From a virus (taxonomy: Duplodnaviria; Caudoviricetes): a DNA stretch of 64,000 nt. The first letter of the stretch is position 1; every line of letters starts with the position of its first letter. Under the pieces are notes generated by a model that was given only the letters and a program-made list of their open reading frames with translations, had not been told where the DNA came from and made no database searches. The stretch spans positions 12,741 to 76,740 of IMG/VR virus record IMGVR_UViG_3300027991_000080; one strand, 5' to 3'. Position numbers and translations under genes: made by a program. This document shows, piece by piece, positions 4,881-39,132 of the stretch.

Positions 4881-7655
4881 TCAAGTAGTTGCAGAAACGT
4901 GCCAAAGCGTGATGTGGTTGTTCCCGTTGCGAGCGACCAGCTTGCGCCCCCCTACCACCCGAGACCGCATCGCCCTCAGCTTGTACCCGAGCGTGGTGGC
5001 ATCGGGCTTGCTAGGAGACGGACGCCCCTTCGGTTTGCAGAGCACCTCGATCGCGTCGCGGAGCGCTTCGAATTCCGACCATTCTGGAACTTGCTCGTAT
5101 AGCGCCGAGATGATGTGTCGGGCCGCCACGCCCTCTGTGGGGCTCCCGGGAGCCAGGCTCACGAGCTTTGCGTGCAGCATCGGAAGCTGGTCCAGGAGGC
5201 ACGAGAGCGCCTGCGTTTCGACGTCTACGTCTTCGTCCCTCTCCGGCCTGGCAAGCATAGGGTCGGCGCCGCCGGCGAAGACGATCGCGTGAGGGATGAG
5301 CCGGCTCCACTCCTCGAAGGAGCCCCATCGAGCGCATCCCATGTCCGGGCGTCCAGCGCGCCAGTACGCGCGAAGAATCAGCAGAGCGGCTCCCACGAGT
5401 CGCGGGCGCTGCACTCGAATGAACTCGAGTAGGTCTTGATGCTTGAACGTGGTGCGCCGCTCGGGGCTTTCTTCCTGAGGCTCGAGACGGGCCATGAGAA
5501 CTCGGCGCGACGTGTCGCCGAAGAGCGCCATGTTGTTGCCGGTGGCCATGATCAGCGCGCGCCAGGGGAGAGTGGGAACGTGTGACTTCCCGAGCACGCG
5601 GAGATCCACCTCGTCACGCGCCGTGATGCATCGATCGATCGGACCTCCACCGAATGGTCGCATTGCGGGAACGTTGTCGAGACAGATGAACGATGAACCC
5701 TTGAGCGCGTATCCGGCGAGGATCTTCTCGAGCTCTACCTCGTCGATCGTGTAGTTCATACGCGGAGCTCCGCGCCCGGTCGCGATCATCGCGATTGCGT
5801 CTGTCTGAAGCGTCTTTCCGCTTCCTCTGGTTGAAGCGTCGAAGAGCACCGCTGGGATGCTTCCGTTGATGGCAGGGCGAGCTATCAGGGTCATGATCGC
5901 AGCGACGGGAACCGACCGATGCGAGGCGTTGACGTAGGGGAAGTCGGAAAAAATTCCGTTCAGCATTCCGAACGCCCACCGAGCATCTTCCTGAGAAGTG
6001 CGCTCGTCCTTCACTTCGGGAAAGTGACCGCTCGGTATGTACAGGTATCCTGTGTCCGGATCGTAGCCAGGTCTCTGCGCAATGGTTCCGTTGGCTCCGA
6101 AGGTGGGTGTCTCCGTGATTCCGGTGAGCGTTCTGATGCCTGGCCAGTGCCCCTCATCGTGAATGTGTCCAACGATGTCGTCGGTCGGAAGAACGTTCTT
6201 GTATCCGCCCGACGATTCGACCCACTTCTGAAATATGGCGAACTTGCTCAAGCGCCCCTTGATCACCGCTCGAGTGAGGATCTGGATCTGTGGACTTCCT
6301 TCCACCAGCTGTCGATGAGTGACGGAGTCATCCGTGTCGATGGTGGGAGACTGTTCGCTGTCCGTCTTTGAAACCTTCGTGACGCTCACGAGTCTTCCGC
6401 TGCGCTGATACATGTTGTCGTCGGTGCGGAGCGCCTTCACAGATTCCAGTACATTCGTGTGAAGCTCAGTGCTTATTCGGATCGTGGGCCTTCTCTCGCG
6501 TACTTGCTGAGATGGTGGGATAGAGGACGGAGATGACTCCGGAGAACTTCCGTCCGCAGTAGCGGGAGCCGGATCCGCGAGCCATACCGGTTGTCGTACC
6601 TTCCCGCTCTCGCGCGTCTTCCGATCGGCGCTGTCGAGCGTCTTGCGCGACTCGCCTTCTCCGAGTCCGCACGCCTTTGCGGCCGACAGCATCTCGTCGT
6701 AGATCCATTGCCACTTGTGCCCCAGGTACACGCCGGCGCACTTCTCGAAGAGCATGCAGGCTTTCGCGTAGAGCGTGTTGTTGCGCATGCCCTCGGTGCA
6801 GGCAGCGAGCGCGCGGGCCTCGTTGTGGACCGCTGCCTCGAGCCATCGCTCGACTCGTGTTCGCGCGCGCCGATCTTCGCTGAGTGTCTTCGGTGTGTAC
6901 TGGGAGATGATCTTGGGGAGCTCTGGCTCCGTCACCAAAACAGTTCCCCAGTGCACAGGCAGCTGCGCAATCGCACCTACTCGCGTCCACACGTAGCGCT
7001 TCCCGTTGGCGTGTAGTGACGGAGCGACGACGACTTGACCACCTTCCACCTTCACGTCGACGCCGGGCTCTCCGCCGACTCCGGCGACGTTTACGAGGCG
7101 CTTAACGTCGATCTCCGGAGGCACCGTGAAAAAAAGTCGATAGCCACGCCCAGAGTCGCAGCGAGCCGTTTCCGGGAGCGGTCCGAGCTCCGTCTCAAGC
7201 TTCGCTCCACGATCTAGATCGTCGATGTCGACGGCGAGGATGTACTCGTCGACGCCGAGCTGCCGCCCGAGCACCATGCCGACATTCGGTTCGAAGGATA
7301 GTCGAGCGAGGTGATCGCGGATCCCCTCGATCGAGAAATCCCCTTTCGCCCAGTTCTTTGCGATGGGGTGCTTTCCCACGGACGAGGAGCCGTTTTTGGA
7401 CTTACCGTGCGCCTTGCCGCAGGTGCATCCCCCGGAGTCGGTAGGGGCGTGAATCAGGATCGGCTTGAGGCCGGCCGCGCAGTATTCGGCGACGGCTTCC
7501 TCAGCGGTCTCGACGGTCAGCAGAGAAGCCGGGAGTACTAGGCTGGGGCGATTTCGAACAGGAGGGAGATCAGGGAGATCGGGAGGGTTGCTATCAGTGT
7601 CACCAGTGCCATCCGTGATTTCTTCCACCACGCCGATCGTCCTTTCCTGACACAC
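4881..7655 (-). CDS. Bifunctional primase-polymerase (Prim-Pol) fused to a P-loop helicase/ATPase
   Basis: CTCG...GKHP, NVGMVLG, AVDIDD, GQVVVAPSLHANGKRYVW N-terminal motifs; ASTRGSGKT Walker A, CLDN Walker B, ATGNN; true start uncertain. Confidence 0.88.
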   Translation of the reverse strand: MCQERTIGVVEEITDGTGDTDSNPPDLPDLPPVRNRPSLVLPASLLTVETAEEAVAEYCAAGLKPILIHAPTDSGGCTCGKAHGKSKNGSSSVGKHPIAKNWAKGDFSIEGIRDHLARLSFEPNVGMVLGRQLGVDEYILAVDIDDLDRGAKLETELGPLPETARCDSGRGYRLFFTVPPEIDVKRLVNVAGVGGEPGVDVKVEGGQVVVAPSLHANGKRYVWTRVGAIAQLPVHWGTVLVTEPELPKIISQYTPKTLSEDRRARTRVERWLEAAVHNEARALAACTEGMRNNTLYAKACMLFEKCAGVYLGHKWQWIYDEMLSAAKACGLGEGESRKTLDSADRKTRESGKVRQPVWLADPAPATADGSSPESSPSSIPPSQQVRERRPTIRISTELHTNVLESVKALRTDDNMYQRSGRLVSVTKVSKTDSEQSPTIDTDDSVTHRQLVEGSPQIQILTRAVIKGRLSKFAIFQKWVESSGGYKNVLPTDDIVGHIHDEGHWPGIRTLTGITETPTFGANGTIAQRPGYDPDTGYLYIPSGHFPEVKDERTSQEDARWAFGMLNGIFSDFPYVNASHRSVPVAAIMTLIARPAINGSIPAVLFDASTRGSGKTLQTDAIAMIATGRGAPRMNYTIDEVELEKILAGYALKGSSFICLDNVPAMRPFGGGPIDRCITARDEVDLRVLGKSHVPTLPWRALIMATGNNMALFGDTSRRVLMARLEPQEESPERRTTFKHQDLLEFIRVQRPRLVGAALLILRAYWRAGRPDMGCARWGSFEEWSRLIPHAIVFAGGADPMLARPERDEDVDVETQALSCLLDQLPMLHAKLVSLAPGSPTEGVAARHIISALYEQVPEWSEFEALRDAIEVLCKPKGRPSPSKPDATTLGYKLRAMRSRVVGGRKLVARNGNNHITLWHVSATT

Positions 7656-12293: not shown

Positions 12294-12909
12294 CTTCCTT
12301 CATCCGCTCCAATGCGGCGTTCGTAAAAATGGCCACCTCGTTCGCAGTCGCCGGTCTCGGTTCTGCCGACACCCACTCCTCCCCGATCGGCCAGCAAACG
12401 GTTGCGTGATCCGGATCGGGTAGCGGGCGTCGGGTGACAATGGTGACGGTACCGTCTTCTGGGAACGACTCGTGAAGCAGCAACGCCTCTTCGGTATACT
12501 TGTCGCCGGCGACGTAGGAGTGCTCGCGCGAGCGCAGACGTACCGGGCGCGGAGCAAAATCGGGAACGAGACCTCCGCCTTCGCCGCAACGGATGCGGCC
12601 GAGCGTGTGGGTAGGGGGGTCTACCGCGTAGGCGTCACGGATGTGGTTCGGTTTCCAGGACGTACCGAATCCGTCGAACGCTACGTCCCAGATCCGATTG
12701 ACGACCCACCCACAGACGATCTCCGATTCGAAATCCCACGGGTGACTGTGGATCGTAGAAACGTTTTTGACAGCGAACCGCGGACACCAGATGTGCATCC
12801 GCACGTCCGACGACAGGTAGAGACGCAGCATCCCGAGCCCTTGGTAGGACCATCGGTATCGGTTGCCTTGCTCGAGGATGCGGGTGACGAGGAGCTGAGT
12901 CGTGTTCAT
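12265..12909 (-). CDS. Cupin-fold protein (possible dioxygenase-like)
   Basis: RMHIW...IHSHPWDFESEIVCG HxH motif and downstream LHES. Confidence 0.55.
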   Translation of the reverse strand: MNTTQLLVTRILEQGNRYRWSYQGLGMLRLYLSSDVRMHIWCPRFAVKNVSTIHSHPWDFESEIVCGWVVNRIWDVAFDGFGTSWKPNHIRDAYAVDPPTHTLGRIRCGEGGGLVPDFAPRPVRLRSREHSYVAGDKYTEEALLLHESFPEDGTVTIVTRRPLPDPDHATVCWPIGEEWVSAEPRPATANEVAIFTNAALERMKEDAKHADNAE

Positions 12910-18672: not shown

Positions 18673-18897
18673 ATGTCTCCGTCGCCTCTCAGTGAAACTT
18701 GCCTGTGCGGAGGTTCGTCGTGGCACTCGATGCTGAACGGCATAATCTGGTGCCGCAGGTGCGGGTGCGCGAAACTCGGATTCGAGAAATACTGGAAAGT
18801 ACCACTCGATCGAGCGAGGGACATGTCCTCTGCGGTAGTCGCGCCGGATGACGGGGAACCGGCAACGATCCCGGACACAGGGAAGCCTGAGCCTTAG
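18673..18897 (+). CDS. Small Zn-ribbon protein
   Basis: CLCG...WCRRCG. Confidence 0.5.
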   Translation: MSPSPLSETCLCGGSSWHSMLNGIIWCRRCGCAKLGFEKYWKVPLDRARDMSSAVVAPDDGEPATIPDTGKPEP

Positions 18898-19709
18898 GAA
18901 GCTGGCGGTATCTCCGGTTTTCCGCGCGCAACGACGTGTCGGAAGTGCCGGTACGTCCCCTTTTCGTCATACTCCCCGAGCCCTAGCTCAACGAGCATTG
19001 CGGAGAGCGCTTTCGCCTCCGGACCGTGATCCTTGTACCCGTACCAGACGATGCCGTACGGATAGACGCGAACCATCTGCGCATTTAGGCGCTTGGCTTG
19101 CAGAGCTCGATCGGGGCTCTTCGGCATCTGTGCAAGCACGGCTATCTGTCGCTCGAACTCTTTGAATTGTGCATAGGCTGCGGCAGAGCGCGCGTCAGCC
19201 TTGGCTTGTTTCGCAGCGCGCTTCGCGTCTCGCTCGAGTTTCGCCGCTGCACGCTCCTCTCGACGAGTAGCTTGCTCGCGACGCATCTCGGGAGTACGCC
19301 CCTCCTCGTCGATCTCGATCAACTCCCCCGGTGCCCATTGCTCGATGAGTTTCGTCATTCTCCGGTCGGAGAAGTCGATCTGAGCGATCTGGCTCTTCGC
19401 GGCGTTGATTGCGACCTGCAGCGCTTTTTCGTACTTGTCTTGCTCGATCGGGTCGCTCGAGTCGCGCCGGTAGGTTGTGTATGTCCTGTTGATCCTTGAG
19501 TACCCGTCGATCTGCTCCGGACGCTCTTCGTATTTTCGAATCGATTCTTCGTATCCGGAACGCCACAGAGCGAGCTGATCTCGATACGCGGAGCACCCGG
19601 AGCTGGATTGCTCGTACGGCGGATATCCAACTCCGAAGCAATCACCGACGACGTTTCCCGTGCCGGGTCTCTTGTAGCCGTGGAGCACCATCCGCCCGTT
19701 GGGGTTCAC
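18894..19709 (-). CDS. Cys-motif/coiled-coil protein; probably the -1 frame extension of 19757..22609
   Basis: Frame stays open ~140 nt upstream of the GTG (FVGTCPVCEGHFKVNPNG...HGYKRPG...GDCFG) with no start codon there. Confidence 0.7.
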   Translation of the reverse strand: MNPNGRMVLHGYKRPGTGNVVGDCFGVGYPPYEQSSSGCSAYRDQLALWRSGYEESIRKYEERPEQIDGYSRINRTYTTYRRDSSDPIEQDKYEKALQVAINAAKSQIAQIDFSDRRMTKLIEQWAPGELIEIDEEGRTPEMRREQATRREERAAAKLERDAKRAAKQAKADARSAAAYAQFKEFERQIAVLAQMPKSPDRALQAKRLNAQMVRVYPYGIVWYGYKDHGPEAKALSAMLVELGLGEYDEKGTYRHFRHVVARGKPEIPPAS

Positions 19710-19756
19710 CTTGAAGTGACCCTCGCAGACCGGACACGTTCCGACGAAGCGGGTCG

Positions 19757-22609
19757 TTACTTCTTGGACTTCTTCTTCGAGCGCGTACGGCGCTGAGTCG
19801 GGCGCCGCACCGCCTTCTTCGTGCGACGCCGGGGGGCTTTTGGGGATGATCTAACGCGACCTCGCGACGGTTTCCGTGACGCCATCTCCGCGTCAACTTT
19901 CTCTTGAGCCTCGTGAACTATCTCACCGATCTGGTGAGCGTACCTTATGAAGTGCCCAAACTGAGATCGGGTGCCGTACGCAGCGCGCTGAAGCTCTGTC
20001 CACGTCTTTTGGTACGCTTTCTTAGGCGGTGTACCGTTTTCTCTGTGACGTCTGTAGTGAGCGATAGCGAACTCGAGCGCTTGCGCTCGCGCTTCGGGCG
20101 GAACAGGCTCAACTCCGTATTGGTCTCCTTCTTCCCGGACGGAGCCGCCGCTCAGTTTTCTGATGGCAACTCGGTACCGATTGAGCGCTCCGGCTCCCTT
20201 GTCGGTGAGCACGAAATAGTCACCGAACGATGAGAGCCCCTCTGTCTTCCGCTTGAGGACGATGTAACCGTTTTCTCTGAGTGCCGAGTACGCCCTGTCG
20301 TAGACGACGGAGTCTCCCTGCATCGGCACTTTTGCTCCGCCGGCGTGCTCTCCCATTCCGTACAGGAGTACGTTGAGCATGGTCGGCGTGATGCCATCTC
20401 GAGCCAGTTCTGGTGGCACCCAGGTGTCGCTGCCGCTGCGAGACCCCTCACGGAAGAGCGGGTACGACGACGGCGCCGGTGGAGCTCCTCTTCGATGCTT
20501 CGGCACGAACTTCACATGGCCACCTGGAGGCACGTGCGAATCGGCTTGGTGTCGGTGAGGGAAGGGGCCCGCGGCGCGACGGTCGTTGCGGTCGACGGCG
20601 ATGTAGTCCTCGCGGGCCTCGCTGGTGCTCTGCGAATCCCACACGAGCTCCCCGTCGCGCGTGATGACTTGAACGTAGTCGCCCTCGAACGTGGGATCTC
20701 GGAGCAGTTTTTTTGCCTCTCTCACCGCCACATCTTCGTCGTCGAATCCGAATGACTCGCCGCCTCCGCCACCGAGACCGCCGACGATCGTGCCGTCGCT
20801 CCAGAGTGGTTGGATGATGTAGAACGGGTCCTCTACAGGTTCGTGTCGCGCCTCGCTCATTCCTTCTTCGTTTCTGCACTGCGACTGCGCTTCGTACAGA
20901 CCGTCGAATTGCGTCACGAGCTCTCTTGGGGCTTTCAACACAGCGCGACAGTATGCGCGCATCTCACGATCGTCACCGATCACATCTCCGAGGCCACCCG
21001 AGAGCGCGGTGCCTGGAGTCGTACCGGATCCGGTGGCTCGTTCGCGGTAGAACGCATGCCAAATCCGCGGCGCCTGACGGAGAAAGCATATCTGCTCTCC
21101 GGGAGTTTCCCCTTGAACGGCACTCATCTTGTAGGCCACGAGCCATCCGTCGCCAACGTCTTGAGAGATAGTCCAGCCCGACATCCAGCGCAGGAAGTCG
21201 TAAGCTGCGGCGCTCTTCCTTCCTCGTCTGCCGGTGCGTGCCTCCGCCGCATGTCTCCGTCCTTCGATCGGTTTTGCTCCGTTCGGGATCCGTTTTACGC
21301 CTTCGCGTGATCCAGGCCCCTCGGCATGCCAGTACCCGCCCTTGCGCCAGGTGCGCGCTTCTTCGTACGGATACTCGCCGCCGCGGGGAAAGTAGATCCA
21401 CGCCTGAGTCTTGTCGCCGTTGAAAACAACGTGCGTCGCTCCCAGCTCGCGGCCCGCGTGCGCCACGAGATCTTCGAGCGTGTTGAAGTCGGCGACCACC
21501 CTAGACTCGCTGGCGAAGTTCGGCTCGTTCGACGCTCTCAGCCCAGCCTCGATCCCGGCGCTGGTCGGCTCCCATCCTTTTCGACCGTAGGCCACGAAAC
21601 CGTTGTCGGCGAGATTTTGAAGCGCTCCGTCTCGGTAGGCGTCTCCGTTGTTCCAGGATGCGATCATCCAGTCTTCGATGCCGCCGCCCTCTCGAACACC
21701 CTTCGCCTGACGCCCTCCCAGCGTCACCGTGTGGCCAGAGGCGTCGATCGGGTACTGCTCTCCGCGACGAGCTTGGATCGTGGCTGCGTGTTGCTCGATC
21801 TCTTTTCGGAGCGACGCGGGGCAGTCAGGATAGAACTTGAGCGTGAGCGTGTCGAAGTCCAGGAAAGCGCACTTCGCGTAGTCTCCGTGCTTTTCGCGCT
21901 TCCTGTCGGCGTACGAGATGCCGGTCGAGTACACGCCGATAAACAGACGGTCGTTCGTGTGGTTTTGCGATTCGCTCAGATTCCCGCCTGCGTACCTACC
22001 CGTTCCAGCGAACGTCCACGTCGATCCGTCGCTCGACTTCCACAGCTCGTGCCAGGTGGTGTCGCCGCTTCTCTTCGTGTCGCTGATTCGAACTTGCGCA
22101 TCCTTTGACTGCGGTCGGTGACGCTGCATGAAGCCGTTCGCGAACGCCTGCGCTTCGCCGTGCGTCCAGAAGACGGCTTTTTCTTTTCCCCCGACATGAC
22201 CCGGCATCATGTCTTTTGTTTTCCAGTAGCCATCCCAACCGAAGACTTCAAACAGATCGTTCTTGTAGCGAACGGGAGTGCCGGCGCGCTTCTTTCGCGC
22301 CTCGCTAAGATCCGTCTCGTCTCCGTGAATCCCCGCATCGTCGAGCGACATCTGAAGCGCATCGCGGATCGTGTAGAGCTCGTCGATCTCCTTCTTGGAA
22401 AAGGTTCCCTTGCCGAGTTGGAACTTGTTTCGACCCACCTTCTTCACGCGCGAGATCTCGGAGTTCAGATTGCTGATGGCATCCTGAAACACTTCCGCCT
22501 CGTGCTGTCCACCCATCGAGTAGATAGCGTAGAGCGGGTCTCCTTGGCTGCTCCACCATCCCTGCATAAGGTTGAGCGCATCGTCGTCGTACAGTGTGAC
22601 CTGGGTCAT
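19757..22609 (-). CDS. Large modular (polyvalent/polyprotein-like) protein with basic C-terminal tail, 950 aa
   Basis: Start MTQVTLY at 22609 (TAATG overlap); short domains joined by recurring x-[SRA]-E-[AGSE] linkers; Arg/Lys-rich end. Confidence 0.85.
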   Translation of the reverse strand: MTQVTLYDDDALNLMQGWWSSQGDPLYAIYSMGGQHEAEVFQDAISNLNSEISRVKKVGRNKFQLGKGTFSKKEIDELYTIRDALQMSLDDAGIHGDETDLSEARKKRAGTPVRYKNDLFEVFGWDGYWKTKDMMPGHVGGKEKAVFWTHGEAQAFANGFMQRHRPQSKDAQVRISDTKRSGDTTWHELWKSSDGSTWTFAGTGRYAGGNLSESQNHTNDRLFIGVYSTGISYADRKREKHGDYAKCAFLDFDTLTLKFYPDCPASLRKEIEQHAATIQARRGEQYPIDASGHTVTLGGRQAKGVREGGGIEDWMIASWNNGDAYRDGALQNLADNGFVAYGRKGWEPTSAGIEAGLRASNEPNFASESRVVADFNTLEDLVAHAGRELGATHVVFNGDKTQAWIYFPRGGEYPYEEARTWRKGGYWHAEGPGSREGVKRIPNGAKPIEGRRHAAEARTGRRGRKSAAAYDFLRWMSGWTISQDVGDGWLVAYKMSAVQGETPGEQICFLRQAPRIWHAFYRERATGSGTTPGTALSGGLGDVIGDDREMRAYCRAVLKAPRELVTQFDGLYEAQSQCRNEEGMSEARHEPVEDPFYIIQPLWSDGTIVGGLGGGGGESFGFDDEDVAVREAKKLLRDPTFEGDYVQVITRDGELVWDSQSTSEAREDYIAVDRNDRRAAGPFPHRHQADSHVPPGGHVKFVPKHRRGAPPAPSSYPLFREGSRSGSDTWVPPELARDGITPTMLNVLLYGMGEHAGGAKVPMQGDSVVYDRAYSALRENGYIVLKRKTEGLSSFGDYFVLTDKGAGALNRYRVAIRKLSGGSVREEGDQYGVEPVPPEARAQALEFAIAHYRRHRENGTPPKKAYQKTWTELQRAAYGTRSQFGHFIRYAHQIGEIVHEAQEKVDAEMASRKPSRGRVRSSPKAPRRRTKKAVRRPTQRRTRSKKKSKK
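19801..19844 (-). promoter_or_regulatory. Candidate -1 programmed ribosomal frameshift signal
   Basis: C CCA AAA in frame (19844-19838), 7-nt spacer, 10-bp stem GGCGUCGCAC/GUGCGGCGCC with 10-nt loop. Confidence 0.65.
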
Positions 22610-37105: not shown

Positions 37106-38437
37106 ATGGCAGCAATGAGCAAGGTGAAGGAAACGGCGATTCTCGGGAAGCGCAACTCGAGGTTCGGTGACTCGCGCGACGTGAAGCGCGTTCAGTTCGG
37201 TCTCGGTGAGTCGCCGGGAACGGTTGGGGCTGGCGAGAAGTGCTTGCGCTGCTCGTTCGGCAACATCCCCGTGATCGAAGAGGTCGTGTGGACGATTCCT
37301 CTCCCGCTCACGGCGGACGAGGCTCTTTCGACCCTCGGTGACACGGTGAACCTTCTCTCGGGTTCCTCGAGCGTGCCCGGAGTGGCGTCGATCGACTCGA
37401 CGTTCCTCATCAACGGCATTCTCCAGACGGACATCCTTGCTCAGGGTATCGGTGTGCACGTGTTCCATGAGCCGATGAGCTTCTCAACGATCGGCAACTC
37501 GTTCGCGGCTCCCGATGCGAGCGCGACTCCCCCTCCGTCTCCGGACGTGTGGACCGACAACGATCTGTTCAACGGTGCGCTCGGTGGACAGTTCGCTGGA
37601 GCGAGCCCCACCGCGGACACTGCCCCAGCTCCGGCGGTGTTCGAGTTCGGTGTCGACGTCTGGCGTGCAGGCTGGAACTTCATCAACGCCTACCAGTTCC
37701 AGTGGAAGACGTCGCAGCGCGAACTCGTGTTGAACGAGCTCGCTGCAGACGTCTCCTACTTCGGTTCGTTCGCGGACGCAGAAGCGGCAGGAACGAGCGA
37801 GGTAGCGATCGCGGAGTTCGTGGCCGCCGTCAACGCGACGTACCGCTCGAAGGGTTCGAATACGGTGTTCCTCCCGGCGAACTTCCGCCGCGTGGGCAGC
37901 GTGAACAGCACGTCGGCGACGAGCAACGTCGGCGTGTTCCACCCGACGAGGGACTTCGACCTCGCTCCGGTGACCTGGGGTGGTCTCCGGTGGCAGGGGT
38001 ACGGCTGCCGCGGGCAGATGTATCGGCAGGTCGAGAGCCCGTGCTTCCTCGAGCGCGGGATCCCTATCGGCATGCAGTTCATCGTCCAGGACGCCGTGCA
38101 CCAGGCGCTCATGCTCCAGGCCGTCACGATCAACAACGGCGCGCTCGGTTCGAACGTTTCTCCGGACGAGAACTTCACCTGCTTCACCCAGGTAGGCGGA
38201 GCGGCCGGGCAAGGCGTTCCGACCGCTGGAGCGATCGCTTCCGGCGCGAACAACGTCATGCTGGAGCAGACTCTCGACGCGACTCCGGTGCTCATCCAGC
38301 AGTCGGTCAACCAGTGCCGTCAGATCTACAAGGGCGGCATCCTCAAGCTCGCGATCAAGATCAAGGGCTGGGAAATGCCGGGCGGTTGGAAGGCGTGGTG
38401 CGAGAGCACCGGCGTCATCGGGCCGTCGAAGGGCTGA
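37106..38437 (+). CDS. Candidate major capsid protein (beta-rich, jelly-roll-like)
   Basis: Position after core protein, own terminator; alternating beta pattern (AQGIGVHV, PCFLERGIPIGMQF, LKLAIKIKGW). Confidence 0.55.
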   Translation: MAAMSKVKETAILGKRNSRFGDSRDVKRVQFGLGESPGTVGAGEKCLRCSFGNIPVIEEVVWTIPLPLTADEALSTLGDTVNLLSGSSSVPGVASIDSTFLINGILQTDILAQGIGVHVFHEPMSFSTIGNSFAAPDASATPPPSPDVWTDNDLFNGALGGQFAGASPTADTAPAPAVFEFGVDVWRAGWNFINAYQFQWKTSQRELVLNELAADVSYFGSFADAEAAGTSEVAIAEFVAAVNATYRSKGSNTVFLPANFRRVGSVNSTSATSNVGVFHPTRDFDLAPVTWGGLRWQGYGCRGQMYRQVESPCFLERGIPIGMQFIVQDAVHQALMLQAVTINNGALGSNVSPDENFTCFTQVGGAAGQGVPTAGAIASGANNVMLEQTLDATPVLIQQSVNQCRQIYKGGILKLAIKIKGWEMPGGWKAWCESTGVIGPSKG

Positions 38438-38458
38438 TTCGTAGTCCCCCGTAAAGAC

Positions 38459-38526: not shown

Positions 38527-39132
38527 ATGCAGCCCCGTGACCACGATGTGAAAAACCTCGCCCTGTACGCGCCGCGGGTCGCGTACGCAATGGTCGTCGG
38601 CGTTCCCCGCGTACCAGTCGTGCTCGACATTCCGATCCAGTTCTCCTCGAGCACCGTCAATGCTCCGCCGGTTGTGCAGAGCTTTCAGAACAACCTGACA
38701 CAGGACACGCTGATCGAGCGCGTCTCGTACGCTCTGTCGCAGCCGAACAGTTTTCCCGGATCGCCGTTCCAGAGCCTCTACTTCAACCAGCTCAAGCAGA
38801 GCGGGCGCACCGGAATCGGAATTCGAATGGACGTGTACGGCGGTCCAAAATACGCCATCAACGATTCGTTCACCGATCTCGGTAACCTCGCCGACGTGTT
38901 CGCTGTGACGTGGCCTCAGGGATGGCCGCTCTACAAGCAGAGCAACGTCAAGGTCGCCGCGATTCTCACCGACACCCCGACTAGCGTTCCGTACAGCGCA
39001 ACGATCTCGTTTCTCGGGTGGCAGTTCAACGACAAAACGATCGACGACATGTCCGATCAGGACGCTCGTGCCGCTCTCCGAAAGATCGGGATCGACACGC
39101 CCGATCTGATGAACCTGCTCCCGCAGAGATGA
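38527..39132 (+). CDS. Candidate small capsid protein (single jelly-roll-like)
   Basis: Beta pattern DTLIERVSY, IGIRMDV, WPLYKQSNVKV, ATISFLGWQF. Confidence 0.5.
   Translation: MQPRDHDVKNLALYAPRVAYAMVVGVPRVPVVLDIPIQFSSSTVNAPPVVQSFQNNLTQDTLIERVSYALSQPNSFPGSPFQSLYFNQLKQSGRTGIGIRMDVYGGPKYAINDSFTDLGNLADVFAVTWPQGWPLYKQSNVKVAAILTDTPTSVPYSATISFLGWQFNDKTIDDMSDQDARAALRKIGIDTPDLMNLLPQR

Follow-up and report, generated by a model that had tools for sequence, protein, structure and literature searches.

A lost start codon and a candidate -1 frameshift site at a gene junction of a Caudoviricetes provirus

INTRODUCTION

How can a complete protein still be made from a phage gene that has no usable start codon? 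The question is raised by two adjacent genes of an uncultivated phage, in IMG/VR virus record IMGVR_UViG_3300027991_000080 (Duplodnaviria; Caudoviricetes), of which we analyzed positions 12,741 to 76,740, a stretch of 64,000 nucleotides (nt) that is hereafter called the window. The upstream gene encodes a protein of 950 amino acids (aa), and the downstream frame, which lies in the -1 phase relative to it, encodes a protein of a phage family. The initial annotation had proposed that a -1 programmed frameshift joins the two frames. We found that the start codon of the downstream gene has become GTA in this phage lineage, and that ordinary initiation of the complete protein is thereby essentially lost. 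A -1 frameshift near the end of the upstream gene, yielding products of 950 and 1238 aa, is a plausible but unproven substitute, to which we assign a probability of about 0.5 on the basis of the nucleotide sequence. The locus is part of a minus-strand operon, and all of its features lie on that strand (Table 1).

Table 1. Features of the gene junction in window coordinates
Feature	Position	Strand	Basis
Upstream gene, 950 aa	22609..19757	-	Gene call; the upstream genes of L012 and L014 have modules in common with it
GAGG, upstream of the heptamer (by 15 nt) and of AUC 19850 (by 9 nt)	19860..19863	-	Read from the sequence
Open -1 frame, 318 codons	18894..19850	-	Translation; PHROG, profile, alignment, AlphaFold
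Slippery heptamer C_CCA_AAA, in register (frame-0 TCC CCA AAA)	19838..19844	-	Sequence, translation
7-nt spacer GCCCCCC	19831..19837	-	Sequence
Hairpin, candidate frameshift stimulator	19801..19830	-	Folding; arms 19830-19821 / 19810-19801
Competing hairpin, -23.0 kcal/mol, using the 3' arm of the first stem	19780..19814	-	Folding
Codon GTA, aligned to the relatives' initiator Met and overlapping the upstream stop	19758..19760	-	Alignment; ten contigs
First canonical start GTG, used by gene callers	19707..19709	-	Gene calls

RESULTS AND DISCUSSION

The segment without a start codon belongs to a conserved protein

The -1 frame opens directly past a TAG at 19853-19851 and runs to the stop at 18896-18894; as the initial annotation had described, no ATG, GTG or TTG occurs in it until the GTG at 19709. 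Read from position 19760, the frame yields a 288-aa protein composed of an N-terminal Cys/His-rich domain, a long coiled coil and a small C-terminal domain. The matches to PHROG 28271, 17208 and 11549, all without an assigned function (E-values 1.6e-9 and 3.4e-8), start at residues 26-38 of the 318-codon frame, inside the part that lacks a start codon, and R34, G37, C39, P40 and C42 of that frame are nearly invariant across the family. The earlier suggestion that this segment belongs with the domain downstream was thus well founded. When residues are numbered from the GTA codon, the invariant positions are G7, C9, C12, H27, G28, R31, P32 and C41, all of which are present in the window protein; judging from their pattern, the invariant C, C, H and C probably form a zinc site.

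A search of 5.8 billion proteins retrieved 21 relatives besides the window's own protein, and a profile search of 1.84 billion cluster representatives retrieved 3152 clusters, 295 of them at E <= 1e-30. The family consists mostly of stand-alone phage proteins of ~265-340 aa. Nearly all of the best 150 profile matches are 260-300 aa long, with their first residues aligned to the profile start; among these 150, only the window's called protein (P0003, profile position 20) and P0099 (position 25) have starts that lie far into the profile. In the AlphaFold model of the downstream protein (mean predicted local distance difference test score, 86), residues 4-18 form a beta-hairpin ahead of the long helices; in other words, the 17 residues without a start codon are modelled confidently as the first beta-hairpin. 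Homologues that begin at the equivalent of GTG 19709 and lack the GTCPVC segment were looked for, and the homologues instead carry that segment as part of the conserved domain. A start at GTG 19709 would remove residues 1-17, and of the four invariant Cys/His residues C9 and C12 would go with them; the internal GTG or ATG annotated by gene callers accordingly deprives the protein of two invariant cysteines.

Pfam contained no family matching the downstream protein, an Atlas search of it returned unnamed clusters only, and no PDB fold matched the model, the best E-value being 0.095 for prefoldin/DksA-like coiled coils. The domain is found internally in other proteins, namely Ralstonia phage RsoM2USA gp71 (RsoM2USA_71), Serratia phage phiMAM1 MAM_093 and the 709-aa metagenomic protein P0040, which holds two copies at residues ~191 and ~555, each after an N-terminal region of ~190 aa. 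These internal copies indicate that N-terminal extensions are compatible with the domain.

The start codon has become GTA

All close relatives opened (38-48% identity) have the downstream gene as a stand-alone gene, which starts with an ATG, GTG or TTG where the window has the GTA. The relatives' Met lies 7-10 residues ahead of the first Cys, as in M-T-T-R-L-V-G-T-C-P-V-C, for which the window has V-T-T-R-F-V-G-T-C-P-V-C. The upstream gene of L012, L013 and L014 ends at 5004 and the downstream gene starts at 5001, which gives an ATGA overlap; such a 4-nt stop/start overlap, with ATG, GTG or TTG, is present in 9-10 of 20 relatives, and in L009, L010 and L011 the downstream ATG or GTG follows after a short gap. 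The window has GTAA (19760-19757) where L012, L013 and L014 have ATGA: the upstream stop was kept (TGA to TAA) and the downstream start was destroyed. The 4-nt overlap typical of stop/start coupling is therefore retained in GTAA, and the AUG, GUG or UUG needed for restart is replaced by GTA in all ten contigs recovered. These contigs stem from several studies, agree over kilobases at an identity of 99.8% or more and do not differ at the junction, by which a sequencing error at the GTA was ruled out. Because the relatives have starts of their own, without fusion or a shared signal, the simplest history is that of a lost start codon, a point absent from the initial annotation.

A loss of this kind may have gone uncompensated. 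Under this reading, a point change from GTGA to GTAA arose in one clonal lineage, the gene is either dispensable and starting to decay or expressed as a truncated protein from GTG 19709 or ATG 19691, and the putative frameshift signal described below is a coincidence. The relatives start uniformly at that codon, usually with the 4-nt overlap, the near-identity of the contigs leaves room for a young lesion, and gene callers do choose GTG 19709 or ATG 19691, the former with GAGGG upstream. However, the truncated product would lose C9 and C12, the gene bears no other damage, and the lineage is present in many samples, among them ERZ27256737, SRR7687003, SRR8438002 and JGI 3300024275. We regard an uncompensated lesion as quite possible, at odds that fall clearly short of even.

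Alternatively, the overlap might still work with a near-cognate codon, either by restart on the GUA that overlaps the TAA or by a 30S start at AUC 19850 through the GAGG upstream of it, to give a low level of free full-length protein. The geometry of the overlap is kept exactly and is the same as in L012, L013, L014, L016, L018, L024, L037 and L039, and relatives with ATGA overlaps but no good Shine-Dalgarno (SD) sequence imply termination-coupled restart. Initiation inside a translated open reading frame (ORF), however, is disfavoured, and the heptamer and hairpin would be left as coincidences. Unlike the restart codon of an ATGA overlap, GTA is neither canonical nor a recognised near-cognate. 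AUC belongs to a class that initiates at 0.1-3% of AUG, whereas GUA, which differs from AUG at two positions, falls among the codons outside AUG, GUG, UUG and four near-cognates, for which initiation in E. coli is 0.01-1% of AUG (10.1101/063800). An initiator-like phage transfer RNA (tRNA) reading GUA was also considered and ruled out, as the only tRNA of the window is tRNA-Arg(TCG). Near-cognate initiation is thus an improbable source of the protein.

A putative slip site and a hairpin lie near the end of the upstream gene

The heptamer, the 7-nt spacer and the 10-bp stem that had been reported for this locus are all present. The upstream gene ends in ...TCC CCA AAA GCC CCC CGG..., encoding ...SSPKAPRRRTKK...KKKSKK*, in which an X_XXY_YYZ heptamer stands in register and a stable structure follows 7 nt downstream, which is the optimal spacing and lies within the 5-9 nt characteristic of frameshift sites. 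The stem includes one G-U pair and closes a 10-nt loop (-19.1 kcal/mol folded in isolation). In a systematic study of E. coli, heptamers of the type V_VV.A_AA.R, the class of C_CC.A_AA.A, were the most efficient, and C_CC.A_AA.A was listed with those whose frameshifting exceeds 0.1% in the absence of any stimulator (PMC4066793). The GAGG ahead of the heptamer could serve as an SD-like stimulator or as the SD sequence of a near-cognate start.

The gene that carries this site appears to be genuine up to its end. The 950-aa protein is a mosaic of modules of 50-120 aa, and the same modules occur in another order and number in the upstream proteins of related phages, of 696 aa in L012 (2914-5004) and 477 aa in L014 (3571-5004), as established by alignment; the L012 protein also ends in a basic tail. 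The shared modules and this tail indicate that the neighbourhood is syntenic and that the Arg/Lys-rich C-terminus of the 950-aa protein (...SSPKAPRRR...KKKSKK*, stop TAA at 19759-19757) is genuine frame-0 coding sequence. Module boundaries fall at x-x-Glu motifs (LSE/A, ASE/S, TSE/A and FRE/G in the window, TRE in relatives). Seven of the eight Lys codons of the tail (19760-19840) are AAG and the sole AAA is that of the heptamer, compared with a genome-wide AAA usage of 27%; this choice means that no extra A_AAA_AAG slip site is made in the KK and KKK runs.

The same tract might instead fuse the frames by slippage of a polymerase, with one base added in C4-A4-G-C6 in part of the DNA or RNA population. 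Short homopolymer runs do flank the site. Efficient transcriptional slippage, however, is known from runs longer than 4 or 6, and both the C6 and the A4 are unaltered in 10/10 contigs, which makes this explanation highly improbable.

The combination of heptamer and hairpin is rarely produced by chance

We estimated how often such a signal would arise by coincidence. In-register X_XXY_YYZ heptamers occur 48 times in the 18,605 codons of ~62 long ORFs of the window (0.0026 per codon), which corresponds to ~7% for one zone of 30 codons. A hairpin of <= -19 kcal/mol that starts 5-9 nt downstream is found at 0.84% of the codon-registered positions in the window's genes, and one as strong at the same spacing in 0.63% of synonymous recodings of the tail peptide; the latter value ruled out that the hairpin is a by-product of the Arg codons. 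An enrichment of hairpins at gene ends was likewise rejected, given 6/62 end zones against 7/70 internal zones. The product of the heptamer and hairpin rates is ~6e-4 for a 30-codon zone, and when the whole 35-codon tail was recoded, heptamer and hairpin appeared together at a frequency of 5e-5 (<= -19 kcal/mol) or 0.2% (<= -15 kcal/mol).

The signal is therefore real and statistically unusual. Across three null models, the joint chance of a heptamer and a placed hairpin (<= -19 kcal/mol, 5-9 nt, 30-codon zone) is ~5e-5 to 2e-3, and a coincidence of roughly this size, up to ~1% if the hairpin has another function, is demanded by every reading without a frameshift. This counts against an uncompensated lesion.

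The strongest downstream fold among the 48 heptamers of the window (-25.7 kcal/mol over 45 nt) belongs to another site, G_GGA_AAT at 38370 (+). It lies within ORFs 37106-38437 and 37549-38454; the -1 frame there closes after 24 codons, and the register may have been taken from an ORF that is not a real gene.

A -1 frameshift may have replaced the lost start

The loss of the start means that an alternative route to the full protein is needed, and the slip site in the preceding gene is plausibly the only route left that the sequence supports. Of the ribosomes that translate the 950-aa frame, some would be held up by the 10-bp hairpin and would shift by -1 on C_CCA_AAA, which lies 84 nt upstream of the former start; these ribosomes would then read a 26-residue linker, acidic and rich in Pro and Ala, followed by the whole downstream protein. 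The major product would be the 950-aa protein with its basic tail, and the minor one a fusion of 924+314 = 1238 aa with the junction ...SSPK-SPPASHEE... and the transframe peptide ...SSPKSPPASHEEGG.... From a physical point of view, a hairpin behind an efficient heptamer should bring no fewer ribosomes into the frame than any of the other routes. Apart from its start, the downstream gene is undamaged and retains every invariant residue of the family, which is in favour of continued expression of the whole protein. The Lys codon choice of the tail and the N-terminal extensions that the domain bears elsewhere likewise speak for the frameshift. The two products proposed by the initial annotation thus fit a signal that is real and unusual, a domain that is continuous and lengths of 950 and 1238 aa, but they find no support among the homologues.

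Several observations weigh against this frameshift. First, given the many Lys residues of the tail, the heptamer by itself is no rarity: one with an open -1 frame appeared in 15% of the trials in which the 35-codon tail was recoded. Its efficiency class, moreover, was ranked in E. coli and may differ with the tRNA pool of the phage's host. Second, hairpins as strong occur in ~10% of 73-nt zones, so that the rarity resides in the placement. The stem stands as annotated, and its position is specifically rare, but its 3' arm is shared with a more stable hairpin that competes with it (19814-19780), leaving it 42-57% of the ensemble, or 89% when the first 5 downstream nt are occluded; the minimum free energy of the whole region is unexceptional (z = -1.6; 13/200 shuffles fold as well). 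Third, the near-identity of the contigs deprives synonymous conservation of any signal and would allow the start lesion to be recent. Fourth, a newly evolved frameshift in place of a start has a low prior, and it would be a lineage-specific novelty on top of a start loss that a single transition explains.

The relatives add a fifth point of this kind. Homologues that keep the heptamer and stem, or in which the two genes are fused in frame, had been regarded as a means of checking the frameshift, and no relative is fused or carries heptamer and stem; the relatives are stand-alone genes with their own starts. In-register heptamers in the equivalent zones of 21 loci are not enriched (4/715 codons versus 10/3534 in controls) and no hairpins accompany them. 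Modules of the 950-aa protein were absent from all 168 family proteins compared with it, and a search for longer family members yielded P0040 and P0021 only, without a fusion. Open upstream frames of 54-87 codons also exist in relatives with a normal ATG, and in L012 a stop in the downstream frame occurs three codons before the ATG. These absences, together with the open frames, are also what an uncompensated lesion would predict.

In-register heptamers with an open downstream frame were observed in two relatives, at L013:4917-4938 (G_GGT_TTG and G_GGA_AAG) and L014:4848-4854 (G_GGA_AAA), both with a normal ATGA and without a strong hairpin. They had suggested a frameshift common to the whole family, which was ruled out by the lack of enrichment and of hairpins over the 21 loci.

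In sum, the comparative data neither confirm nor test the frameshift; as possible compensation for the lost start it is favoured by the statistics. A more elaborate version of the same idea holds that a lineage-specific frameshift took over from the coupled start, and that the protein is now delivered only as the C-terminal module of a polyprotein that may be processed by a protease. Cleavage after the ...VQE that directly precedes V-T-T-R-F in the -1 frame would leave a nearly ancestral N-terminus, and the locus would then be a snapshot of gene fusion by recoding. We gave the VQE little weight because its Glu codons are dictated automatically by the AAG Lys codons of frame 0, and we consider this version unlikely.

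Comparison with known frameshift systems

The candidate site resembles those of E. coli dnaX and of the IS911/IS3 orfAB genes in its in-register X_XXA_AAR heptamer, 5-9-nt spacer and stable downstream stem, and the possible role of the upstream GAGG recalls the SD stimulator of dnaX and IS911. As in IS911/IS3, the -1 ORF lacks its own start; in the insertion sequences it is made only as a fusion. Unlike in these systems, however, the signal described here is found in no homologue, its stimulator has a competing hairpin, and the ORF that would be fused is a complete gene that stands alone elsewhere. The phages lambda (G/GT), P2 (E/E') and T7 (10A/10B) also obtain a minor, longer product, at a fixed ratio, from ribosomes that slip by -1 toward the end of a gene. 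Large phage groups have those sites in common, and the ORF into which they lead was at no time equipped with a start; the frameshift considered here, in contrast, would be confined to one lineage and would stand in for an initiation codon that was lost.

If the frameshift operates, recoding stands in for a lost start, which would offer an evolutionary route from coupled neighbours to a fusion protein and would add a case that is neither a tail gene nor a transposase to the short list of -1 frameshifts of bacterial viruses. If it does not, the locus is a useful warning that a heptamer and stem that arose by chance can be deceptively persuasive beside a start lesion.

Genomic context

The window is part of a 76.7-kb record that is classed as a provirus and estimated to be 95% complete. 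Its GC content is ~60%, and only a small number of its genes have counterparts in known phage families, with matches that include a helicase, a PrimPol-type primase, an endolysin domain and a collagen-like fibre protein. The tRNA-Arg(TCG) call lies at 39019-39115 (-) and, at 97 nt, is unusually long for a tRNA. A 4.3-kb contig of the same phage, L007, has 7 mismatches to the window and is colinear with it (L007:1-612 against 20512-19900); its gene calls upstream of the junction consist of two short minus-strand genes in place of the 950-aa gene.

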